DNA of 64,000 nt from an uncultured Eggerthellaceae bacterium. Its GTDB lineage: Bacteria > Actinomycetota > Coriobacteriia > Coriobacteriales > Eggerthellaceae. How positions within the stretch are numbered: the first letter of the stretch is position 1; every line of letters begins with the position of its first letter. Position numbers and translations under genes: made by a program. Shown here one piece after another: positions 7,795 through 48,505 of the stretch. The notes beneath the pieces were generated by a model that ran no database searches, had not been told where the DNA came from, and saw only the letters and a program-made list of their open reading frames with translations. The stretch covers positions 2,838-66,837 of the forward strand of contig CAKTXN010000003.1 of assembly GCA_934630905.1 (NCBI GenBank), written 5' to 3'.

Positions 7795-8074
7795 AAAATA
7801 GGAGGAAATCAAAATTATTTTGATTTCCTCCTATTTTTAATATGCACTACTTGAGCAAAATAGGAGATTTTGATAAAAAATTGAAATTTCTCCTATTATT
7901 TCTTTCAATTATCAAATGAAATTGCTTGTTTTGACTCATTTTGCACTGCGTGTTGTCTAAATCAAGGTTAAATAATAGGAGGAAAATTAAAAAATTTCAT
8001 TTTTCTCCTATTTTATCAAAGAGGACCGTGCTATAAATAGGAGAAATATAGAAAAAATACGATTCTCTCCTATT
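7795..8074. repeat. four homologous ~40-bp imperfect palindromes (AATAGGAG-N23-CTCCTATT)
   Basis: Copies lie at 7795-7837 (perfect 20-bp stem, 3-nt loop), 7859-7897, 7974-8012 and 8036-8074. They form two pairs, each 62 bp start-to-start, with 115 bp between the pairs. The DNA is AT-rich. Confidence 0.9.
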
Positions 8075-8107: not shown

Positions 8108-8914
8108 ATGTTGCTGGATGAGGTCAAATCAGAGCTGGCCGAGCTAAACGATGCAATCGAGTGGGCACAAAAGGGACTTAGCAAGGCGCCTGAGGGCTCT
8201 TTGCTCGTCGATGACTCAAAAAACGGTATTCATTATTATTGGCGCAAGACAGCTACGGATAAAAAAGGTGTTTACCTGGGCAAAGGCGACCAGGAGCAAG
8301 TTCGCGCTCTTGCACAAAAAGATTACGAGGCTCGCTTGCTTAAGGCTGCCGAAAAGGAAAAAGCCTTGCTTGAGCGAATTCAAGTACGCTGCGACAAGGG
8401 AGGCTTGCAGGGCTCAGGGGTCCTCGGGCTGACTTACGAAAACCTGTCTGATGCTCGAAAAGAGCTGGTGGAGCCTTATATTTTGTCAAACGACGAGTAT
8501 GCTCGACGCTGGCAGCTTGAAGAGTATGCAGGTAATTCACATCCGTTTGGATCGTATTCGCTATTCACGCGCGGTGGCGTGCGGGTGCGCTCGAAATCCG
8601 AAGTGCTTATCGCTGACGCTCTAGAGGCGGCGGGCGTGCCGTATAAATACGAGCGCCCTCTCAACCTGGGAGGATACAATCCCGTCTATCCTGACTTTAC
8701 GGTATTGAACAAGCGTACTCGCGCAGAATATTATTGGGAGCATTTTGGGGGCATGGATGATGCTGAGTACCGAGAGGGCATGGTGCACAAGCTAAACAGT
8801 TATGCGTTGGCTGGCATATTTCCCGGTGAGCAGCTTTTGGCTACTTACGAGACATCGGAAACGCCCTTGGATACACGCGTTATCAGGGTACTTATTGAAA
8901 AATACTTGCTTTAG
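8108..8914 (+). CDS. hypothetical protein with C-terminal PD-(D/E)xK (TnsA/Vsr-like) nuclease-fold motifs
   Basis: 268-aa ORF with AAGGGGG upstream of the ATG. The N-terminal half is coiled-coil-like. The C-terminal half reads RSKSEVLIADALEAAGVPYKYERPL ... YPDFTVL ... YYWEHFG. The fold assignment is by motif resemblance only. Confidence 0.55.
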   Translation: MLLDEVKSELAELNDAIEWAQKGLSKAPEGSLLVDDSKNGIHYYWRKTATDKKGVYLGKGDQEQVRALAQKDYEARLLKAAEKEKALLERIQVRCDKGGLQGSGVLGLTYENLSDARKELVEPYILSNDEYARRWQLEEYAGNSHPFGSYSLFTRGGVRVRSKSEVLIADALEAAGVPYKYERPLNLGGYNPVYPDFTVLNKRTRAEYYWEHFGGMDDAEYREGMVHKLNSYALAGIFPGEQLLATYETSETPLDTRVIRVLIEKYLL

Positions 8915-16191: not shown

Positions 16192-17382
16192 ATGCCTCAA
16201 GATTTGAACGAGAGAATGTACGGGCTGGGTGCCGAGCCGAGCGCAATCCGCGAGCTGTTCGCCTACGGCCTTGAGCGAAAAGCGCAGATAGGCGCCGATA
16301 AAGTGTTCGATTTCAGCATTGGCAACCCGAGCGTTCCCGCTCCCAATGCCGTGAAGCAGGCAATCGTCGAGCTTGCGGAGATGAACCCCGTTGAACTGCA
16401 CGGATACACTCCTGCGCAGGGACTTTACACTACGCGCAAAGCCGTTGCGGATAACATCCGCCGCCGCTTTGGCGTTCCCGCTACGCCGGAAAACGTGTAC
16501 ATGACAGCGGGTGCGGCGGCTTCTCTTGGCATTGCGTTCCAGGCGGTTGCTGTTCCGGGTGAAGAGATTATCACCATTGCGCCTTTTTTCCCTGAGTACC
16601 GCACGTTTGTGGAAAGCGCACAGTGCACGCTGGTGCCCGTTGCCGCGCGCACAAGTGACTTCCAAATTGACATTTCCGCAGTTGAAGCTGCTATCAACGA
16701 AAAAACGCGCGCCGTTTTGATTAACACGCCCAATAATCCCACGGGCGCTGTGTATTCCCGCGAAAACTTGGAAGAGCTGGCCGCCTTGCTCACGCGCAAA
16801 GAGGAAGAGCTTGGCCGTAAGCTGTATCTTATCAGCGACGAGCCGTACCGCGAGATTTCCTATGGCAAGGAAATTCCGTACGTGCCCACGTTGTATCCGC
16901 GAACGATTGTGTGTTACTCCTGGTCAAAAAGCCTTTCTTTGCCGGGTGAGCGCATTGGCTACGTGTATGTTTCCGATTATGCCGATAACGCGCGCGAGGT
17001 TTCCACCGCCATTGCGGGCGCGGGCCGCGCTTTGAGCTACGTGTGTGCGCCGGCGTTGTTCCAACGGGTGATTGAGCGTTGCATTGACGAGCCGTCCGAT
17101 GTTGAGTCGTATCGCGAGAACCGCGAAATTCTGTCCGAAGGCCTGAAAAAGCTTGGGTATGAGTACATCGAGCCTGATGGAGCGTTCTATTTGTGGGTTA
17201 AGGCGCTCGAGCCCGATGCCGAGGCGTTCTGCGAAGCGGCGAAGAAGTTCGAGCTTTTGCTGGTGCCATCGAACAGCTTTGGCTGCGAAGGATGGATGCG
17301 CTTGAGCTATTGCATCTCGAAAGAGACCATTGTCAATTCGCTGCCGGCGTTTGCCGCGTTGAAAGAAAGCTACCAGGGGTAA
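16192..17382 (+). CDS. PLP-dependent aminotransferase, class I/II (AspC/AlaT-like)
   Basis: The start was trimmed to MPQDLNERMYGL. Motifs seen: NTPNNPTGAVY, and YSWSKSLSLPGERIGY, which carries the PLP lysine. Confidence 0.85.
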   Translation: MPQDLNERMYGLGAEPSAIRELFAYGLERKAQIGADKVFDFSIGNPSVPAPNAVKQAIVELAEMNPVELHGYTPAQGLYTTRKAVADNIRRRFGVPATPENVYMTAGAAASLGIAFQAVAVPGEEIITIAPFFPEYRTFVESAQCTLVPVAARTSDFQIDISAVEAAINEKTRAVLINTPNNPTGAVYSRENLEELAALLTRKEEELGRKLYLISDEPYREISYGKEIPYVPTLYPRTIVCYSWSKSLSLPGERIGYVYVSDYADNAREVSTAIAGAGRALSYVCAPALFQRVIERCIDEPSDVESYRENREILSEGLKKLGYEYIEPDGAFYLWVKALEPDAEAFCEAAKKFELLLVPSNSFGCEGWMRLSYCISKETIVNSLPAFAALKESYQG

Positions 17383-17964: not shown

Positions 17965-19136
17965 ATGGAGAACTTTGAATTCGTATCGCCAACACAGTTT
18001 GTATTTGGCAAAGATGCCGAACTTCAGATTGGCACAAAGCTCGCGGCGGCGGGTGCTAAGAAAGCGCTCGTTCACTTCGGCGGCAAAAGCGCGAAGGCCA
18101 GCGGTTTGATTGATCGTGTGTGCGCATCGCTTGATGAGCAAGGGATATCCCATGTTGAACTGGGCGGTGTTCGTCCCAACCCCGAAGTTACGCTTGTGCG
18201 TGAAGGCGTGAAAATCTGCAAAGAGCAGGGCATCGACTGGATTATTGCTGTGGGCGGCGGTTCGGTCATTGACTCTTCCAAGGCAATCGCGAACGGCGCC
18301 TGCATTGATGAAGATGTGTGGACGCTTTTCGAAACAAAGCGCACTGATCACGCGGTTTTGCCGATTGCGGTGGTGCTCACTATTCCGGCGGCGGGCAGCG
18401 AAGCTTCCAAGAACACCGTTATCAGCAACGATGAACTGGGGCGCAAGACGGGGTACGCGAACAATAACCATCGTCCGAAGTTCGCATTCATGAACCCTGA
18501 GCTCACGTTCACGCTGCCCGAATACCAAACGGCTGCGGGCATTACGGACATGTTCGCGCACTTGTTGGAGCGGTTTTTCGATAACGTGGGCGCGGTTCCC
18601 GTGACCGACAATCTGAACTTGGGCCTGATGAAAACCGTGCGCGCCGAAGCTCCGCGCGTTCTGGCAGATCCCGAGAACTACGACGCGCGCGCGAACATCA
18701 TGTGGGCGGGCATGCTGTGCCATCAGGGTCTTGCGGGCATCGGCCGTCACGAGGACTGGGCAACGCACGGCATGGAGCACGAGCTGTCCGCGTTGAACCC
18801 GGCTATCACGCATGGTGCTGGTCTGGCCGTTATGTTTCCGGCATGGATGGAGTACGTCTGCAGCGAAAACCCTGGTCGTTTCGCGTATTATGGCCGCGAA
18901 GTATTCGGTTTGGCTCCCACGGGCGATGCTCTGTCCGATGCGCTTCCGCCGTTGATGAGACACGCGCGCTCTTCTCGTCGCTGGGCATGCCTACTACGTT
19001 GGCCGAGCTTGGCATTGAAGAAGACGACATTGAGAAGATGATCCCTACCCTGCGCGCAAATAAGGGCGAAGTTTTCGGTAGCTTCAAAAAGCTGACCATG
19101 GATGATGCTCGTGCGATATACCGCAGCGCGTTGTAG
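17965..19136 (+). pseudogene. iron-containing alcohol dehydrogenase (BdhA/YqhD-like) with an apparent 1-nt frameshift
   Basis: ORF 17965-19041 carries GGGSVIDSSKAIA and HGMEHELS. The conserved C-terminus (ALFSSLGMPTTLAELGIEEDDIEKM) is in the -1 frame (ORF 18702-19136). The frames switch near 18938-18944. Confidence 0.65.
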
Positions 19137-19217
19137 TTTGCGACATTTGCGCAGGTCGAACGCGCGCTGTGTGTGGATATTAGCGTTCGGAGCACGTTGA
19201 AAAATCAATGACGTATT

Positions 19218-19252
19218 GAAGGGCGTGCCTGGTGCGGGTGCGCCCTTCTTTC
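19218..19252 (+). terminator. rho-independent terminator of the alcohol dehydrogenase gene
   Basis: Stem GAAGGGCG ... CGCCCTTC followed by TTTCG. Confidence 0.7.
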
Positions 19253-19280
19253 GTGCTGCCATCCTTTTTTTAATCATCAC

Positions 19281-19408
19281 ATTGCACCGTTACAGTGCAA
19301 TTTAAGCGAAAAAATGCACCATCACAGTGCAATATACTTTGAAAATTGCACCGCCACGATGCAATTTCTGGTAAAATTTGCACTATCACAGTGCAAATAT
19401 ACTTCTCA
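19281..19408 (+). repeat. 4 x 32-bp tandem units, each containing TTGCAC-N7-GTGCAA
   Basis: TGCAC occurs at 19283, 19315, 19347 and 19379. GTGCAA or ATGCAA occurs at 19295, 19327, 19359 and 19391. The period is exactly 32 bp. The array ends 25 nt before the ATG of the downstream ATPase. Confidence 0.9.
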
Positions 19409-19432
19409 AAAACTGAAAAGGAGTGAGTTAAG

Positions 19433-20599
19433 ATGGAATCGCTTTATGAGTACATGCAGAACCAGCTTAACAACACCGATTTTTCTTTTAAGCGGTATCA
19501 ATACAATCGAATCAATTGGGATAATCGCATGTTGGCCCTGGTTGGCCCACGCGGCGTGGGCAAAACCACGCTCTTCCTACAGCGGATTCGTGATGCCCAT
19601 GCCAATGGTGGGGCATTGTATGTGAGCGCCGATCATTTGTATTTTGCAACGCATACGTTGCTTGAGGTGGCGGACGCGTTTTACAAGCGCGGTGGCGCCT
19701 ATTTCTTCATCGACGAGGTTCATAAGTACCCCGGATGGTCTCGCGAACTCAAAAACATCTATGATGCTTATCCTGACCTGCATGTTTACTTTACCGGTTC
19801 CTCTGTTCTTGATATCGAGAAGGGCGAAGCGGATCTTTCTCGTCGTGCTCCGCGATACCACATGCAGGGGCTTTCGTTTCGCGAGTTCCTTAAAATCCGT
19901 CACGGAATTGACGCGCCGGTGTTCTCGCTCGAACAGATTCTTGACAACAAGGCGGCAATCCCTGGCTTAAAGCATCCTCTTCCTTTGTTTGAAGAGTATC
20001 TTCGCTGCGGATATTATCCTTTTGGGGAAGATGCTGATTTCGATATGGAGCTTCGTCAGGTTATAACGCGAACGCTGGAACAGGATATTCCTGCGTATGC
20101 CCAGATGAACGTGGCAACGGGACGCAAGTTACTGAAACTGATGGTTGTTGTGAGCGAGCTGGTTCCCTTCAAGCCAAACATGAGCAACTTGGCCAAGATG
20201 ATTCAGGTTGGACGTAACAACGTGGAAGAGTATCTTGTCTACATGGAGAAAGCGGGAATGATTTCCCTGCTCAGAACGGGCGCGAGCGGGCTGGGTGCGT
20301 TAGGAAAGGCGGAAAAGGTCTACCTGGATAATCCGAATATCCTTTTCAATTTAAGCAACGAATGCAGCGTTGGTACCGTGCGGGAAACCTTCTTCTTCAA
20401 CCAGATGAGAGTAAATCACCTGGTCACAGCATCGGGGGCTTCGGATTTTATGATAGATGGACGTACATTCGAAATAGGGGGACCTGGTAAGGGGCAATCT
20501 CAAATCAAGGATGTTGACGACGGTTACGTGGTGAAGGACGGAATCGAATACGGTTTCGGGAATGTGATCCCGCTTTGGGCGTTTGGCCTTAATTATTGA
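19433..20599 (+). CDS. AAA+ ATPase (AAA_14/DUF4143, COG1373-type) with C-terminal PD-(D/E)xK-like motifs, paralog A
   Basis: 388-aa ORF with AAAAGGAG upstream. Walker A is LVGPRGVGKTTL and Walker B is FFIDEVHKYPGW. The C-terminus reads RETFFFNQM...SDFMIDGRTFEIGG. It is visibly AT-richer than its flanks. Confidence 0.8.
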   Translation: MESLYEYMQNQLNNTDFSFKRYQYNRINWDNRMLALVGPRGVGKTTLFLQRIRDAHANGGALYVSADHLYFATHTLLEVADAFYKRGGAYFFIDEVHKYPGWSRELKNIYDAYPDLHVYFTGSSVLDIEKGEADLSRRAPRYHMQGLSFREFLKIRHGIDAPVFSLEQILDNKAAIPGLKHPLPLFEEYLRCGYYPFGEDADFDMELRQVITRTLEQDIPAYAQMNVATGRKLLKLMVVVSELVPFKPNMSNLAKMIQVGRNNVEEYLVYMEKAGMISLLRTGASGLGALGKAEKVYLDNPNILFNLSNECSVGTVRETFFFNQMRVNHLVTASGASDFMIDGRTFEIGGPGKGQSQIKDVDDGYVVKDGIEYGFGNVIPLWAFGLNY

Positions 20600-20662
20600 C
20601 GTATGACGATGCTTGCTTGATTCTTCGGAGACAAACTCCAACCTCTTTTGTCTTGGACTTGT

Positions 20663-24802: not shown

Positions 24803-26169
24803 ATGAATGACGTACTGATTGTGGGCGCAGGGCCCGGAGGAATCTTTACCGCTTATGAGCTGCTGGAGAAGCGGCCCGACCTGAGTATTGCTCTTTTCGA
24901 AATGGGTAATGAGCTGGAGAAACGTCATTGCCCCATTGATGGCGATAAGATCAAATCTTGCATTCGCTGCAAACACTGCTCGATCATGAGTGGTTTTGGC
25001 GGCGCGGGCGCCTTCTCCGATGGCAAATACAATATTACGAACGATTTCGGCGGAACGCTGTACGAATACATTGGGAAAAAGCCTGCGCTTGAGCTCATGG
25101 AGTACGTTGACAAGATCAATCTGGCATTCGGCGGCGAAGGCACCAAGTTGTACTCGACCGCCGGTTCCAGCTTGAAAACCAGTTGCATGCAAAACGGGTT
25201 GCACTTGCTGGACGCTTCCGTTCGCCATTTGGGAACCGATATCAACTACATTGTTTTGAAGCACCTGTACGACCACTTGAAGAACAAGGTCGAATTCCAT
25301 TTCAATTGCTTTATCGATCGCGTGGAAAAGCTGGACAACGGGTATCGCATTTATCACGAAGGCACTGCCTACGAAGGGAAAAATGCGTTATTTCCGCAGG
25401 TCGAAGTGGCAGCAAGTGGATGGAGCAGGTGTGTCGCGACCTGAATATCAACACGAACTCCAATCGTGTGGACATTGGCGTGCGCGTGGAGCTGCCGGCG
25501 GGAATCTTCGCCCATCTTACCGATGAGCTGTACGAAAGCAAGATAGTGTACCGCACCTCGAAATACGAAGACCTGGTGCGCACCTTCTGCATGAATCCCA
25601 AAGGCGAAGTGGTCAACGAGAATACGAACGGCATTGTTACCGTCAACGGACACAGCTACGAGGACCCAGCGAAGCAAACCGAGAACACGAACTTTGCGCT
25701 GTTGGTTGCGAAGCATTTTTCCGAACCGTTCAAAGATTCCAATGGCTATGGCGAAAGCATTGCGAAGCTGAGCAACATGTTGGGCGGCGGCGTGATCATC
25801 CAACGTTTTGGCGACCTGATCAGAGGACGCAGAAGCACCGAAGAGCGCATCGCCGAATCCTTCACCATTCCCACGCTGAATGCTGCGGCGGGCGATTTGA
25901 GCCTGGTGTTGCCGAAGCGAATTCTAGATGGCATTATCGAGATGATTTACGCGCTGGATAAAATTGCACCCGGCACCGCAAGCGACGATACGTTGCTCTA
26001 TGGCGTGGAAGTGAAGTTCTACAATATGGAAGTGCAGCTTGACCATAACCTTATGATGTGCCACGAGGGGCTGTACATCATTGGCGACGGAAGCGGCATT
26101 ACGCATTCGCTTTCGCATGCGTCGGCCAGCGGCGTGTATGTGGCGCGCCAAATTGCCGACAAGATATAG
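24803..26169 (+). pseudogene. FAD-dependent oxidoreductase (COG2509-like) with a 1-nt frameshift at an A5 run
   Basis: The N-terminal part reads MNDVLIVGAGPGGIF and runs 24803-25444. The continuation KCVISAGRSGSKWMEQVCRDLNI is in the -1 frame (ORF 25183-26169). The frames switch in AAAAA at 25379-25383. An A6 run would give EGKKCVISAGRSG. Confidence 0.65.
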
Positions 26170-26832: not shown

Positions 26833-26937
26833 GATGTTGACAAATTACCCCACCTTTTGTCAACAATTGCCCGCTAAATCCACGGGACGAACGAAGCTGT
26901 TTGTACGCTTGAGGCTGGAGGCGAATTGTTACGCGCG
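26833..26937. repeat. left copy of a ~105-bp direct repeat flanking ATPase B (contains a REP-like palindrome)
   Basis: The 59-bp stretch 26841-26899 is identical to 28557-28615. The flanks are similar as far as TTACGCGCG. The copy contains TTGACAAATTACCCCACCTTTTGTCAACAA (26837-26866). Confidence 0.9.
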
Positions 26938-27050
26938 ATCAAGCTATCGCCACAATGCCCGAGAAGAGCCGCCGTTCTCGTTGCTGTGCTTTGCAGAAAG
27001 CGCTGCTCCTATCATCGCGTTTAATTGCGGTTCTGGCTTCAAAATGATAT

Positions 27051-27168
27051 CTATTCCAAATTTATGTAACATGTTAAGTTTTTTCGGAATAGATTGACTT
27101 TGTTTCATCGCCCTTGTATCGTCTTTCTATTCCAGATTTATGTAACATGTTAAGTTTTTTCGGAATAG
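27051..27168 (+). repeat. two copies of a 42-bp palindromic unit CTATTCC-N28-GGAATAG with inner TAACATGTTA
   Basis: Copies at 27051-27092 and 27127-27168 match at 41 of 42 positions and start 76 bp apart. The second ends 10 nt before the ATPase B start codon. Confidence 0.9.
27094..27122 (+). promoter_or_regulatory. candidate sigma70-type promoter between the two palindromes
   Basis: TTGACT (27094-27099), a 17-nt spacer, then TATCGT (27117-27122). Confidence 0.4.
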
Positions 27169-27178
27169 AGGAACGAGC

Positions 27179-28435
27179 ATGCAGTCGAAAAGGGAAGAGT
27201 ATCTTGCAAAACTTGCGAAGAAGCGTTTGAGTCCGTACATTAAAGTTATTACAGGTATTCGTCGTTGCGGAAAAAGCTATCTGCTTAAGACGCTCTATCG
27301 CGACTATCTTCGTTCTGCTGGTGTTGATAATCGGCAGATTGTTTCCGTAGAGCTTGATGATGACAGGTTTGAAGAGCTGCGCGATAAGAACGCCCTTCGA
27401 AGCTATATCGAGAATAAATGTTCCGATGACAGTCTGCAGTACTATGTATTCATAGATGAAGTGCAGATGGCTGCGGGGTTTGAGGGCGCGATTATCTCGC
27501 TCAATAATCATCCTAACTACGATATGTACATTACCGGCAGTAACTCCGAGTTCCTGTCCAGGGATATATCTTCAAAGTTTCGGGATCGTGGAGACGAAAT
27601 CAGAATACATCCGCTCTCGTATAAAGAATTCTACGACGTATACCAAGGTGATAAGCGCTTCGCTTTGACGGATTACTTGACCTTTGGCGGTATGCCTCGC
27701 CTTATAAATGAGTCGGACGCTGTGGAGAAGATGGCCTATTTGGTCAACCTGGTTGAAAACACCTACCTGGCAGACGTGGTTGAACGCAATCACGTCCGCT
27801 TGCCCGAGGAAATGGGGGCACTTTTTGACGTTCTGTGTTCTACAACGGGCTCGCTGGTGAATCCCAGCAGCCTGGCGGGGACATTGCTTTCGGAAAAACA
27901 CGTCAAGATAGATGGGAAGACTGTCTTTTCCTATATGGAGCACTTTGAGAGAGCATATCTATTAGAGATAGTTAAAAGATTCAACATCAAAGGCAAAAGT
28001 TATTTGAAAAGCAGCTTCAAGTGCTATCCAGAAGATGTTGGACTCCGGAATGCTCGACTCAACTTTCGCCAGCTTGATCAAGGGTTTGGTATTGAGACGG
28101 TTGTTTATAACGAGCTTCGTCGCAGGGGGTATCGTGTTGATGTTGGCATGATTGAAACAAGGGAGCGCGACAAGGAGGGTAAGCAGGTTTACAAGCAGAA
28201 TGAGGTTGATTTTGTCGCTCGGCTTGCCAGCAAGGAATATTACATCCAAGTCATGGATAAATCTCCTTTGGGTCAACATGGTGCAAACGAGTACGGCAAT
28301 CTCTTGAAGGTTCCAGGGTCCTTCAAGAAGATTGCTGTAGTAAACGAGCCGTTTCGGGCATACACCAACAGCGACGGCATACTTGTGGTTTCTCTGGAGG
28401 AGCTCTTGCTTGAACGCGATTCTCTTGATTGGTGA
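27179..28435 (+). CDS. AAA+ ATPase (AAA_14/DUF4143 type) with C-terminal PD-(D/E)xK-like motifs, paralog B
   Basis: 418-aa ORF with GAGGAA upstream. Walker A is ITGIRRCGKSYLL and Walker B is VFIDEVQ. The C-terminus reads VVYNELRRRGYRVDVG...EVDFVARLASKEYYIQV. It is AT-richer than its flanks. Confidence 0.8.
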   Translation: MQSKREEYLAKLAKKRLSPYIKVITGIRRCGKSYLLKTLYRDYLRSAGVDNRQIVSVELDDDRFEELRDKNALRSYIENKCSDDSLQYYVFIDEVQMAAGFEGAIISLNNHPNYDMYITGSNSEFLSRDISSKFRDRGDEIRIHPLSYKEFYDVYQGDKRFALTDYLTFGGMPRLINESDAVEKMAYLVNLVENTYLADVVERNHVRLPEEMGALFDVLCSTTGSLVNPSSLAGTLLSEKHVKIDGKTVFSYMEHFERAYLLEIVKRFNIKGKSYLKSSFKCYPEDVGLRNARLNFRQLDQGFGIETVVYNELRRRGYRVDVGMIETRERDKEGKQVYKQNEVDFVARLASKEYYIQVMDKSPLGQHGANEYGNLLKVPGSFKKIAVVNEPFRAYTNSDGILVVSLEELLLERDSLDW

Positions 28436-28536
28436 TTTTCTCATCGCTTGGTGCTTTCGACAGGAGGTCGTGCGGTCGTTGTTTCTCAGGGCTGAAAATG
28501 GCAATGGAGGATACGGCTGGCGTTGTACGGGAGCGT

Positions 28537-28649
28537 CGATGTTGTCAAATTGTTGTCAAATTACCCCACCTTTTGTCAACAATTGCCCGCTAAATCCACG
28601 GGACGAACGAAGCTGCGTGCTTGAGGCTAGAGGCGAGTTGTTACGCGCG
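28537..28649. repeat. right copy of the ~105-bp direct repeat flanking ATPase B
   Basis: See 26833-26937. It has an extra internal duplication (TTGTCAAATTGTTGTCAAATT). It overlaps the last 3 codons (stop included) of the 28641 gene. Confidence 0.9.
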
Positions 28650-31974: not shown

Positions 31975-33294
31975 CTATCTTTGCGTAAGAAGAAATGCCA
32001 GGTAATGCGGCAGTGTTAGTATTTCTCCTGTACGGCCGATATTCAGGTCGGCAAGCTTTATGGCTGATTCCACGTGATATTTCTCGGGATGCTTGAGGAT
32101 GGTTTTTATGCTTTTTGCATTACCATCGTTGGCTTTTACTTCAACTGGCACACACTTTCCTTTGTAGCGAATCACAAAGTCAAGCTCAAGACCAGAATCC
32201 TTTCTGAAGTAATAAAGCTTCCTGCCCATTTTTGAGAAGATGTCTGCGATAAGGTTCTCGTAGATGCCGCCTTTATAACTAAAAAGATTGCCGTTAAGAA
32301 TATCGAACTGGGTTCCATCTTCAAGCATGCTCACGAACAGACCAGTGTCCGCCATGTATATCTTGAACTGGTCGTCTATTGCGTTGCCGTCCAAGGGAAG
32401 CTCAGTAATGGACAGATTGTTGCATCGGGTGATTATGCCCGCATCCTCAATCCATTGAAGGCTGCCTGCGAAGCGAGCGGCGGTTGACCCTTTTTTTGCC
32501 AGCGAATACTGGAATTTCTTGTTTTCTTTGGCCAACTGCCTTGGGATTGACTGGAAGCATTGTTTGATGAGCGACTTGTCTGCTGCTGGGGCGTATTTCA
32601 CCATGTCGTCTTCGTAGGCACGTACGATATCGCGCTGAATGCGCAACACGCTTGCCATATCGCGATTGTCCACGAATGACTGAACGGCGTCGGGCATGCC
32701 GCCTACCACGGTATATTCCAGTAGCAGCGAGCGCATACGGGAATGCAAAGCCGGCGGAACCGGCGTTTCGGCTTCGAGATGGGAACGAAGCATCTCAATC
32801 ATTGAATCGGATATATCGTTTGCCCAGCAAAACTCTTCAAAGTCCAGCGGATGCATGCTTATAAGTGTTTCATAGCCCACGGGAACAGAGGCTGGCTCTT
32901 TACCGTAGCCAGCCACTCCAAGGAGCGATCCCGTGCCAATGACATCATAGCGTCCATCAAGGCTGAAGAACTTAAGAGCCGTGCGCGCTTGCGGGCATTC
33001 TTGTATTTCATCAAGAATCAGGACCGTTTCCCCTGGCACGAAGCGCGTTGAGGCACCAAGATACGCAGAGGCCATCATGGTGATTTGGTCTACGTCCAGC
33101 GACCCTGCGAAGATATCTTTTGCACCTGGGTTTTCAAAGAAATTGATGTAAACAACATTACGGTAATTTTCCTGAGCGAAGTGCAATGCAGCAAACGTCT
33201 TTCCGCATTGCCTGCACCCCTTGATAATTACTGGCTTGTGGTTGGGTTCGACTTTCCATGCCAAGAGTTGATCTATGATTTTTCTCTTTAACAT
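31975..33294 (-). CDS. AAA+ ATPase (AAA_14/DUF4143 type) with C-terminal PD-(D/E)xK motifs, paralog C
   Basis: 439-aa ORF. Walker A is IKGCRQCGKTF and Walker B is LILDEIQECPQA. The C-terminus reads IYENLIADIF...LELDFVIRYKGKCVPVEVKA. It is AT-richer than its flanks. Confidence 0.8.
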   Translation of the reverse strand: MLKRKIIDQLLAWKVEPNHKPVIIKGCRQCGKTFAALHFAQENYRNVVYINFFENPGAKDIFAGSLDVDQITMMASAYLGASTRFVPGETVLILDEIQECPQARTALKFFSLDGRYDVIGTGSLLGVAGYGKEPASVPVGYETLISMHPLDFEEFCWANDISDSMIEMLRSHLEAETPVPPALHSRMRSLLLEYTVVGGMPDAVQSFVDNRDMASVLRIQRDIVRAYEDDMVKYAPAADKSLIKQCFQSIPRQLAKENKKFQYSLAKKGSTAARFAGSLQWIEDAGIITRCNNLSITELPLDGNAIDDQFKIYMADTGLFVSMLEDGTQFDILNGNLFSYKGGIYENLIADIFSKMGRKLYYFRKDSGLELDFVIRYKGKCVPVEVKANDGNAKSIKTILKHPEKYHVESAIKLADLNIGRTGEILTLPHYLAFLLTQR

Positions 33295-33320
33295 ATCATT
33301 AGCTTTCTACCTGGGACGAT

Positions 33321-33448
33321 AAACTTTTTCAAGCGACTTTTTCGTAAATTATAAACTTTTTCAAGCGACTTTTTTGGAAATCTGCAACTTTTACAAGGGA
33401 CTTTTTCGCGTTTCAGCAATTTTTCCAAGGGACTTTCGGGTGCACTTC
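33321..33448 (-). repeat. 4 x 32-bp tandem units directly upstream of ATPase C
   Basis: Plus-strand units start at 33321, 33353, 33385 and 33417: AAACTTTTTCAAGCGACTTTTT twice, then CAACTTTTACAAGGGACTTTTT and CAATTTTTCCAAGGGACTTTC. The period is exactly 32 bp. Each unit has an ACTTTTTC sub-repeat 11 bp apart. Confidence 0.9.
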
Positions 33449-47158: not shown

Positions 47159-48505
47159 ATGAACTCGATGCAAGCAGATACTAATGGAAAACAGCAATGG
47201 ATGGTGCCTTTCGGCGCGCGTCCTTCGAACCTCATGTGGTTTTTAGTGCTGGTTGTTGTCCTATCGGGCGTGGTGCTGGGCTGGCAGCTTTCCAGCGGCA
47301 GCATCTCAACGCCTATCATTGCCAGCGCGGGTTTGATGTTCACCATTTCTTTGGTGCTGGTTATGCGCAGCATGGCAAACCCCGATTCCGTTCGCGCACG
47401 TCAAACGGGTGATATGCTCAAGCTCTCCCGTCAAACGCTGGCGTGCTTGAAGGGCGGGCTGGATGAGAAATCGGCGCAAAAGCTGTGTTCGCTTCTCTTT
47501 CCTAATACCGATGCCGTGTCCGTTTGCATTACCGATAAAGAATCGGTTTTGGGCTACGAAGGCTTGGGTCATTCCAGCTATAAGCCGGGCGACCCCATTT
47601 TCGCCACCACGATTGCAGCGACCGCCGAAGACGGCGAGCCGCGTACATTGCTCAGCCACGATGAAATTGGTTTCAAGGAGCCGCTTTACGGCGTAGAGGC
47701 AGCAATTGTTATGCCGCTGCGCGTGGGTAAACGCATTGAAGGCACGTTGACGTTCTTCTTCCATTCACCGCGCAAGATTTCGTCCACGCAAAAGACCATT
47801 GCGGAAAGCTTTGCCCAGCTTGTTTCCACGCAGCTTGCAGCAGAGGCGCTGGAAGGTCAGCAGAAACTTGCCACCAGCATGGAGCTGAAAGCTCTGCAAA
47901 GCCAGATCAACCCGCATTTTCTGTTCAACACTATTAATACTATCGCATCGCTTGTGCGCACCGATCCCAACAAAGCGCGCGTTTTGCTGCGTGAGTTTGC
48001 GGTGTTCTACCGCCGCACGTTGGACGATTCGTCTGATTTGATTCCGCTGTCGCGCGAGGTTGAGCAGACTATGCGTTACTTCTCGTTCGAGATGGCGCGT
48101 TTCGGCGAAGACCGCGTGGGCATTGAGCTGGATATTGAACCCGAGGTAGAAGACCTGATGGTTCCGCCGTTTTTGATTCAGCCGCTGGTTGAAAATTCGG
48201 TGCAGCACGCTATGCCCGCCGAAGGTAAGCTCACGGTGACCATTGGCGCACGCCCCGATGGCGACGACAACGTGATTATCTGGGTTGCCGATAACGGCGT
48301 GGGCATGACCGAGGAAGCATGCCAGAACATTTTGCATCCCGAAAGCGCACGCGGCATTGGCATTGCGGTGAAGAACGTGCACGACCGCATGTGCGGCTAC
48401 TTCGGTCCGGGCACCCATATGGAAGTTGCCAGCGAGCTGGGGTCGGGCACCACGGTGCGCCTGGTTTTGAACCGCGCCGCGCTTGAAGAATTCCTGCCAG
48501 AATAG
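47159..48505 (+). CDS. LytS/YehU-type sensor histidine kinase
   Basis: 448-aa ORF with N-terminal TMs and a GAF-like region. The His_kinase motif is QINPHFLFNTINTI. The HATPase region carries DNGVGM and GIGIAVKNV. Confidence 0.8.
   Translation: MNSMQADTNGKQQWMVPFGARPSNLMWFLVLVVVLSGVVLGWQLSSGSISTPIIASAGLMFTISLVLVMRSMANPDSVRARQTGDMLKLSRQTLACLKGGLDEKSAQKLCSLLFPNTDAVSVCITDKESVLGYEGLGHSSYKPGDPIFATTIAATAEDGEPRTLLSHDEIGFKEPLYGVEAAIVMPLRVGKRIEGTLTFFFHSPRKISSTQKTIAESFAQLVSTQLAAEALEGQQKLATSMELKALQSQINPHFLFNTINTIASLVRTDPNKARVLLREFAVFYRRTLDDSSDLIPLSREVEQTMRYFSFEMARFGEDRVGIELDIEPEVEDLMVPPFLIQPLVENSVQHAMPAEGKLTVTIGARPDGDDNVIIWVADNGVGMTEEACQNILHPESARGIGIAVKNVHDRMCGYFGPGTHMEVASELGSGTTVRLVLNRAALEEFLPE

Follow-up and report, generated by a model that had tools for sequence, protein, structure and literature searches.

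The stretch of DNA analysed here (64,000 nucleotides; hereafter the window) comes from the metagenome-assembled genome of an Eggerthellaceae bacterium (Coriobacteriia). At positions 19433-20599 of its plus strand lies a gene for a 388-amino acid protein with an AAA_14 domain, a predicted winged helix and a possible DUF4143 domain, referred to below as paralog A and proposed to bind the array upstream of it; a GGAG ribosome-binding site (19420-19423, plus strand) can be read from the sequence nine nucleotides before the ATG. The locus is chromosomal, with convergent housekeeping genes on both sides, and the cumulative GC skew climbs steadily across it without a turning point. At 17965-19136, the ORF of an iron-type alcohol dehydrogenase ends at 19041, while the conserved C-terminus of this protein (...MDDARAIYRSAL) is found in another frame, ending at 19136 as in a related species; a frameshift, or a mistake in the assembly of this genome, is the probable cause of the break.

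Between these two genes are four TTGCAC-N7-GTGCAA palindromes at a spacing of exactly 32 bp (19282-19396). A first-pass annotation of this DNA had placed an exactly phased 4 x 32-bp array at 19281-19408, and we verified both its sequence and its positions: TGCAC-N7-GTGCA starts at 19283, 19315, 19347 and 19379 and, together with the flanking T and A, makes each unit a 19-bp palindrome. Unit 1 (TTGCACCGTTACAGTGCAA, 19282-19300) and unit 2 (ATGCACCATCACAGTGCAA, 19314-19332), 32 bp further on, match TGCAC-N7-GTGCA exactly, the left arm of the latter being ATGCAC; unit 3 (TTGCACCGCCACGATGCAA, 19346-19364) has one mismatch in its right arm (GATGCA). Unit 4 (TTGCACTATCACAGTGCAA, 19378-19396) begins directly after the predicted -10 element and ends 36 nt before the ATG, the 25 nt reported earlier having been counted from the end of the trailing linker. 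Tandem Repeats Finder (TRF) described the array with a period of 32 (3.8 copies, 68% matches) and, at a higher score, with a period of 64 bp (1.9 copies, 80% matches). Given this higher score, and given that units 1 and 3 have a linker sequence in common, as do units 2 and 4, the four-unit array is suggestive of a duplicated two-unit block.

Paralog A matches AAA_14 (PF13173) with an E value of 1.6e-28 (99.7 bits against a cut-off of 27). Its match to DUF4143 (PF13635) is weak (21.9 bits, below the cut-off of 28.1); a precomputed PF13635 match is present in many of its close orthologs. Its likeness to PDC-S01/COG1373 proteins consists in AAA_14 and in matches to the PADLOC PDC-S01 models PDLC04789 (9.9e-24) and PDLC04787 (2.7e-21). 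Members of the PDC-S01 family are described as ATPases fused to a PD-(D/E)XK nuclease (PMC12988326, PMC3424549), DUF4143 being a PD-(D/E)XK domain of unknown function (PMC3424549), and the family was ranked fourth among the most common defence candidates in prokaryotes, as yet unvalidated (PMC12988326). The one representative assayed, in E. coli B, did not protect the cells from T4, T5 or T7 (10.1101/2024.09.26.614923). In the searchable papers on PDC-S01, DUF4143, COG1373 and AAA_14, we found no upstream repeat arrays, DNA-sequence specificity or autoregulation.

The Walker A (G38-K44) and Walker B (D94-E95) motifs of paralog A are invariant across 81 orthologs, as are D338, E347 and K353 in the C-terminal domain, whose spacing differs from that of the classical E-x-K motif. 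An AlphaFold2 model built from the 81 orthologs (pLDDT 89.7, pTM 0.89) predicts a P-loop ATPase followed by a helical lid, a winged helix and a small alpha/beta C-terminal domain. The modelled winged helix is canonical, with helices at residues 227-242, 250-257 and 261-273 and a beta-hairpin wing at 277-298. Foldseek matches of the model comprise RuvB, Apaf-1/CED-4, ORC-Cdc6 (7jgr_G, E value 8e-6), clamp loaders, Avs4, MalT (8bob_C, 9e-5) and MuB. These lid-bearing ATPases, which in many cases also have a winged helix, form assemblies on DNA or on ligands. A sequence search for a solved structure of the PDC-S01 family returned matches at the P-loop level only, and an NCBIfam search with paralog A matched no family.

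Conservation of the array with gene A and its promoter

The first-pass annotation had proposed a survey of the upstream regions of orthologs for a 32-bp periodicity. Across the 80 further loci that we sampled (55-99% protein identity, Coriobacteriia and Bacteroidota; related to one another, so not independent), a spacing of 32-33 bp recurs, successive sites being 32 bp apart in 51 cases and 33 bp apart in 20; six spacings remain, multiples of the period (63-65 and 96 bp) plus one of 82 bp. All four units are kept in three congeneric species, where the arms, among them those of the exactly matching unit 1, are intact and the spacers and linkers vary. Two to four sites (at most one mismatch) are present in 53 of the 81 upstream regions, most orthologs having two only. 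Altogether, 133 sites lie within 260 nt upstream of the gene (80 loci), compared to seven in 264 kb of flanking DNA and five inside the genes; shuffled upstream regions yielded 0.004 sites per region. The ortholog consensus reads AAAAwTGCACt-N5-aGTGCAwTTTT, with nearly invariant arms, a free centre and conserved A/T tracts on the flanks of every site, and the motif accompanies the gene across phyla, including at least one inter-phylum transfer. Conservation with the gene upholds the notion of a phased, functional-looking protein-binding array; the binding itself we infer from these sequences.

The whole assembly (2.36 Mb, 54% GC, 293 contigs) contains nine copies of TTGCAC-N7-GTGCAA with at most one mismatch, four at the A locus and five single and scattered, and five exact matches to the 17-mer, three of which are at the A locus. 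A reversed control pattern also occurs five times genome-wide. Since it is as frequent as the true 17-mer, the motif is clustered at one place without global enrichment. Whole-genome searches of this genome and three relatives revealed no second cluster. We accordingly discarded the idea of a global regulon, the motif clustering at the A locus alone in all four genomes.

Clustering of the ORFs that flank the 80 loci placed no family at more than eight of them, which argues against a partner regulator gene travelling with the array. In two congeneric species the site is empty, the convergent flanking genes being about 20 nt apart, and such empty sites in related species indicate that array and gene (approximately 19137-20662) would have been gained or lost as a single block. 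The surroundings of A contain no flanking direct or inverted repeats, and mobile-element ends were ruled out on this basis. At two gene-less loci of congeneric species (L147, G008:C2 ~48064-48300; L148, G005:C291 ~1290-1440), gene A, the -10 element and unit 4 have been lost by one shared deletion, leaving units 1-3 at their 32-bp spacing with perfect arms and with spacers that are unlike between the two species. There may have been too little time for these orphan units to decay, or they may still be bound by something else.

A predicted extended -10 element (TGGTAAAAT, 19369-19377, plus strand) occupies the linker between units 3 and 4. TGnTAAAAT is conserved at this place in congeneric species, and a -10-like element, mostly TGnTAnAAT, is found in the 13-16 nt last linker of 29 of 31 Coriobacteriia-type loci. 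With the -10 between the two units, the -35 region would fall within unit 3 and the predicted transcription start within unit 4. It is this element that is conserved, rather than the promoter put forward earlier (TTTGCA-N15-TATACT), which is absent from two of three congeneric orthologs (L008 and L009) and which we rejected as not conserved even among congeneric species. A simple sigma-70 scan of the plus strand returned nothing useful.

In Bacteroidota, the -7 promoter element has the consensus TAnnTTTG. This sequence follows the last palindrome at 33 of the 34 Bacteroidota-type loci, at a distance of 7-8 nt in 32 of them and of 18 nt in one, which would place the palindrome between the -33 and -7 elements. 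Coriobacteriia-type and Bacteroidota-type loci have different promoter types, and in both the sites overlap the predicted core promoter. One Bacteroidales clade, which branches inside the Coriobacteriia clade (support 100/100), shows the Bacteroidota register, suggestive of an overlap between operator and core promoter that was kept or re-made after transfer between phyla.

Words and periods among the paralogs

The 2.4-Mb genome encodes at least nine paralogs, and nearly every one examined has a repeated word of its own. One of these is paralog C (31975-33294, minus strand), a 439-amino acid protein with AAA_14 and DUF4143 domains (Pfam 2.5e-22 and 2.6e-30) that matches the PDC-S01 model PDLC04786 at 1.1e-152 and, weakly, a TnsC model. 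The array of four 32-bp units with an unrelated sequence that had been reported in front of it is real: TRF finds a period of 32 (33319-33408, 2.8 copies), beyond which comes a fourth, degenerate unit, so that the array, of the GAAAAAGTCGCTTGAAAAAGTT type with half-sites 13 and 19 bp apart, extends over 33319-33446 (minus strand). It is conserved in five congeneric species, where a TATAAT in the linker between units 3 and 4 recalls the promoter register of A. We examined 30 C-type paralogs (31-97% identity) drawn from 60 related genomes. Repeats upstream of the gene are significant in 24 of them, and in 23 of these 24 the best lag is 32, 33, 64 or 65. Their words are unrelated and often consist of two half-sites, direct or inverted, 13+19, 15+17 or 14+18 bp apart. 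By comparison, such repeats occur in 43 of 525 intergenic regions of this genome, with scattered lags; seven of the 43 have a lag of 31-34 or 63-66, and two of the seven are the A and C loci themselves.

At the locus of an 82%-identical ortholog of paralog A (L010:1790-1880), the A-type array is immediately preceded by three units of the C-type word (AACTTTTTCCAGGGACTTTTT). These units adjoin no C-type gene, the gene upstream encoding an EngB-like GTPase, and would represent either a second orphan array or cross-talk between paralogs.

The word has also changed within the A-type subfamily, in three clades characterized by an N8 palindrome (11 loci), CCCTCATTGAGGGA (four loci) and GCTCTC...GAGAGC (one locus), in all of which the spacing is still 32-33 bp. 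In place of SRNN at the start of the recognition helix, SKNN or SKNS stands in each of the four CCCTCATTGAGGGA (CCCTCA) loci, all of which have R261K, and SRNSLDDYF in the N8 clade. These associations are suggestive of a link between residue and word. The N8 and CCCTCATTGAGGGA variants each form a single, well-supported clade, and the link is anecdotal because each word change is a single evolutionary event.

Upstream spacing varies among the other paralogs. Two 44-bp palindromes (TCTATTCC...TAACATGTTA...GGAATAGA), 76 bp apart, are located at 27050-27169 upstream of paralog B (27179-28435), and their spacing is 75-77 bp in its orthologs; B/D-type paralogs in general show either palindromes of 40-44 bp with a spacing of 75-77 or 39-40 bp, or one palindrome alone. 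Spacings are 33 and 33 bp at the paralog on contig C36, and 33, 18 and 33 bp at the one at the end of contig C3; upstream of the contig C69 paralog are two copies only, 151 bp apart, and the contig C286 paralog has no obvious upstream repeat, the start codons of distant paralogs being placed by alignment only. The first reading had taken the geometry for a functional property of the protein family. This extends to A orthologs, to the changed-word clades and to 23 of 24 repeat-bearing C-type paralogs, and it fails for the B/D-type paralogs and for a paralog with a 22-bp period on contig C5. As these deviate, we assigned the period to the A-type and C-type subfamilies rather than to the whole family, and rejected a universal 32-bp period.

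The contig C5 paralog, a distant AAA_14 protein, is preceded by seven copies of TTTGCGAGGTT at exactly 22 bp (G000 contig C5 ~28443-28620, minus strand), a true direct-repeat, iteron-like geometry unlike that of the paralog A array. Paralog B and its palindromes are enclosed by two direct repeats of about 100 bp (26835-26937 and 28551-28649), 1716 bp apart, that are 98% identical over 65 nt and then 94% identical over 31 nt; the arrangement looks like an insertion with target duplication or a recombination scar.

Probable autorepression and alternative roles of the array

Taken together, these features make it probable that the array is a set of tandem operators bound by the product of the gene that follows, with cooperative autorepression as the outcome. 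Binding by the gene's own product is suggested by the winged helix, by the private word of nearly every paralog examined, by a word that moves with its gene and changes with the protein clade, and by the lack of a partner gene. Because the predicted core promoter is taken up by the sites in both phyla, occupancy should repress, and the strict three-turn period, with dimers on one face of the helix, is suggestive of lateral contacts between ATPase domains. On each 19-bp palindrome, two winged-helix domains would sit as one dimer. Since 32-33 bp correspond to about three helical turns, successive dimers would line up on the same face of the DNA, where contacts between the ATPase domains of neighbours could make binding cooperative and possibly ATP-dependent. 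With the last two sites bracketing the extended -10 element, an occupied array would block RNA polymerase and thereby hold expression of the gene low. From this arrangement we infer binding by the gene's own product, the dimer stoichiometry, cooperativity and the sign of regulation, it being the position of the sites that would speak for repression over activation. Two observations count on the other side: a simple autorepressor needs one or two sites, so that up to four to seven of them with a strict period suggest an additional role, and orphan units 1-3 have intact arms in two gene-less congeneric species.

Several known systems resemble this arrangement in part. DnaA is a P-loop AAA+ protein with a DNA-binding domain of the helix-turn-helix type that oligomerises on arrays of short words in its ATP form and represses its own promoter through DnaA boxes. 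The likeness lies in the combination of an AAA+ domain and a helix-turn-helix-type domain with a short-word array on the protein's own promoter. DnaA boxes, however, are asymmetric 9-mers at irregular spacing, in contrast to palindromes at a strict 32-33 bp, and DnaA is a single essential initiator, whereas here there are many paralogs with private words and a putative nuclease domain. Archaeal Orc1/Cdc6, with its origin recognition boxes, and STAND proteins such as MalT occupy multiple sites in front of genes in the form of ATP-dependent oligomers, and the ATPase-lid-winged-helix architecture that they appear to have in common with the paralog A model is a likeness at the fold level. Paralog A differs from them in lacking sequence-level membership, an origin context and a separate sensor domain, and in possessing a putative C-terminal nuclease-fold domain.

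Plasmid replication proteins offer a third comparison. In pPS10, F and R6K, a winged-helix Rep protein binds phased repeats beside its own gene, and dimers bound to an inverted repeat in the promoter bring about autorepression. A winged-helix protein and phased repeats adjoining its gene are likewise found here, and the array had initially been called iteron-like, a description that suits it poorly. Iterons, however, are direct repeats of about 17-22 bp with a spacing of about 22 bp, or some two turns, at a plasmid origin with an AT-rich unwinding element beside a Rep gene. The A array consists of 19-bp inverted repeats at 32 bp, or three turns, over a chromosomal core promoter; its gene encodes a putative AAA+-nuclease and not a Rep, and relatives have an empty site. 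This is operator anatomy, and as in tandem operators the sites overlap the core promoter of their own gene, as judged from predicted promoter elements. The exception in this genome is the contig C5 paralog with its seven direct repeats.

Alternatively, the phased sites may serve as an assembly or docking platform for ATP-dependent oligomers of the ATPase-nuclease in a resting, sequestered or sensing state, with autoregulation as a by-product. Such a role, which overlaps with autorepression and adds a second function to it, seems to us unlikely. It would account for a period that stays strict at 32-33 bp even where the word has changed, for more units than repression needs (up to four here, seven in a paralog), for the A/T tracts conserved beside every site, and for an ATPase-lid-winged-helix architecture recalling that of ORC/Cdc6, RuvB, MuB and STAND proteins, whose oligomers form on DNA or on ligands. 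Speaking against it, most orthologs have two sites that exactly bracket or fill the core promoter, as simple repression predicts; nothing observed points to a sensing role; and the PDC-S01 representative assayed in E. coli B protected against none of T4, T5 and T7 (10.1101/2024.09.26.614923). On a speculative note, to which we likewise attach little probability, the private word could go beyond an operator's role and serve the ATPase-nuclease as its specific DNA ligand; an ATP-dependent oligomer would nucleate on phased copies, and the many paralogs of a genome would make up a repertoire of sequence-specific DNA sensors or effectors. If this were true, the recognition word of each paralog could be read from its own promoter, which would predict what each member of the family recognises.

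Autorepression by the gene's own product also has to be set against the action of a separate host transcription factor on the palindromes, which we consider very unlikely. The perfect arms of orphan units 1-3 in two gene-less species and a palindrome size typical of many dimeric regulators would fit such a factor. They are outweighed by a motif that stays with the gene in different phyla, at least one transfer between phyla included, by the absence of a conserved neighbouring gene, by four whole genomes devoid of any other cluster of the motif, and by the different private word at nearly every paralog examined.

Still less probable is a set of replication-origin iterons, or of end sites of a mobile element, with the ORC-like ATPase as initiator or transposition helper. 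Phased repeats do adjoin an ORC/Cdc6-like ATPase with a winged helix, array and gene come and go as a block, repeats of about 100 bp flank paralog B, and paralog C weakly matches a TnsC model. Against this, the repeats are inverted rather than direct, are confined to one side of the gene and keep a fixed register with promoter elements; A has no flanking repeats; the locus is chromosomal and surrounded by convergent housekeeping genes; the GC skew continues steadily through it; and a 2.4-Mb genome harbours at least nine such paralogs. Finally, RNA hairpins in the 5' leader, acting as attenuators or stability elements, are scarcely credible: every unit can fold, a terminator scan picks unit 2 and some orthologs have symmetric arm changes (CGCAC...GTGCG), but with the -10 between units 3 and 4 transcription would take in the last unit alone, the arms hardly vary at all instead of covarying, C-type arrays of the same period are direct repeats unable to form such hairpins, and we rejected an RNA element in that no Rfam family reached its gathering score, the search returning miRNA-hairpin matches only, at 20-23 bits against thresholds of 50-100.

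If every gene bears on its promoter a private, strictly phased array of the word that its product recognises, these proteins would be sequence-specific DNA binders whose specificity is legible in the genome, in what is reported to be one of the commonest candidate defence families of bacteria and archaea, without a known mechanism (PMC12988326). The arrays would then be ready for use as substrates in studies of binding, structure and regulation, for which the A-type subfamily is favourable, with its clean palindromes, a minimal version of two sites, two phyla with different promoter types, and natural word variants suggestively tied to changes in the recognition helix. For this subfamily, the present analysis contributes the palindromes themselves, the register between sites and promoter in two phyla, the loci with an empty site or an orphan array, and the limits of the 32-bp rule.

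Private phased arrays may extend beyond the AAA_14/DUF4143 family. On contig C12 of G000, about six ATTGCCCAAAGCTAACA-like words at a spacing of about 20 bp are found upstream of position 25881 (plus strand), and the gene behind them encodes a different P-loop ATPase, of 390 amino acids, with a C-terminal helix-turn-helix-like tail. In the window itself, palindromes built on the word AATAGGAGGAA/TTCCTCCTATT occupy positions 7795-8074 before a nuclease-like ORF (8108-8914), and this word recurs throughout a divergent intergenic region of contig C24 of G000 (~16560-16960), beside a YacP/NYN-like gene.
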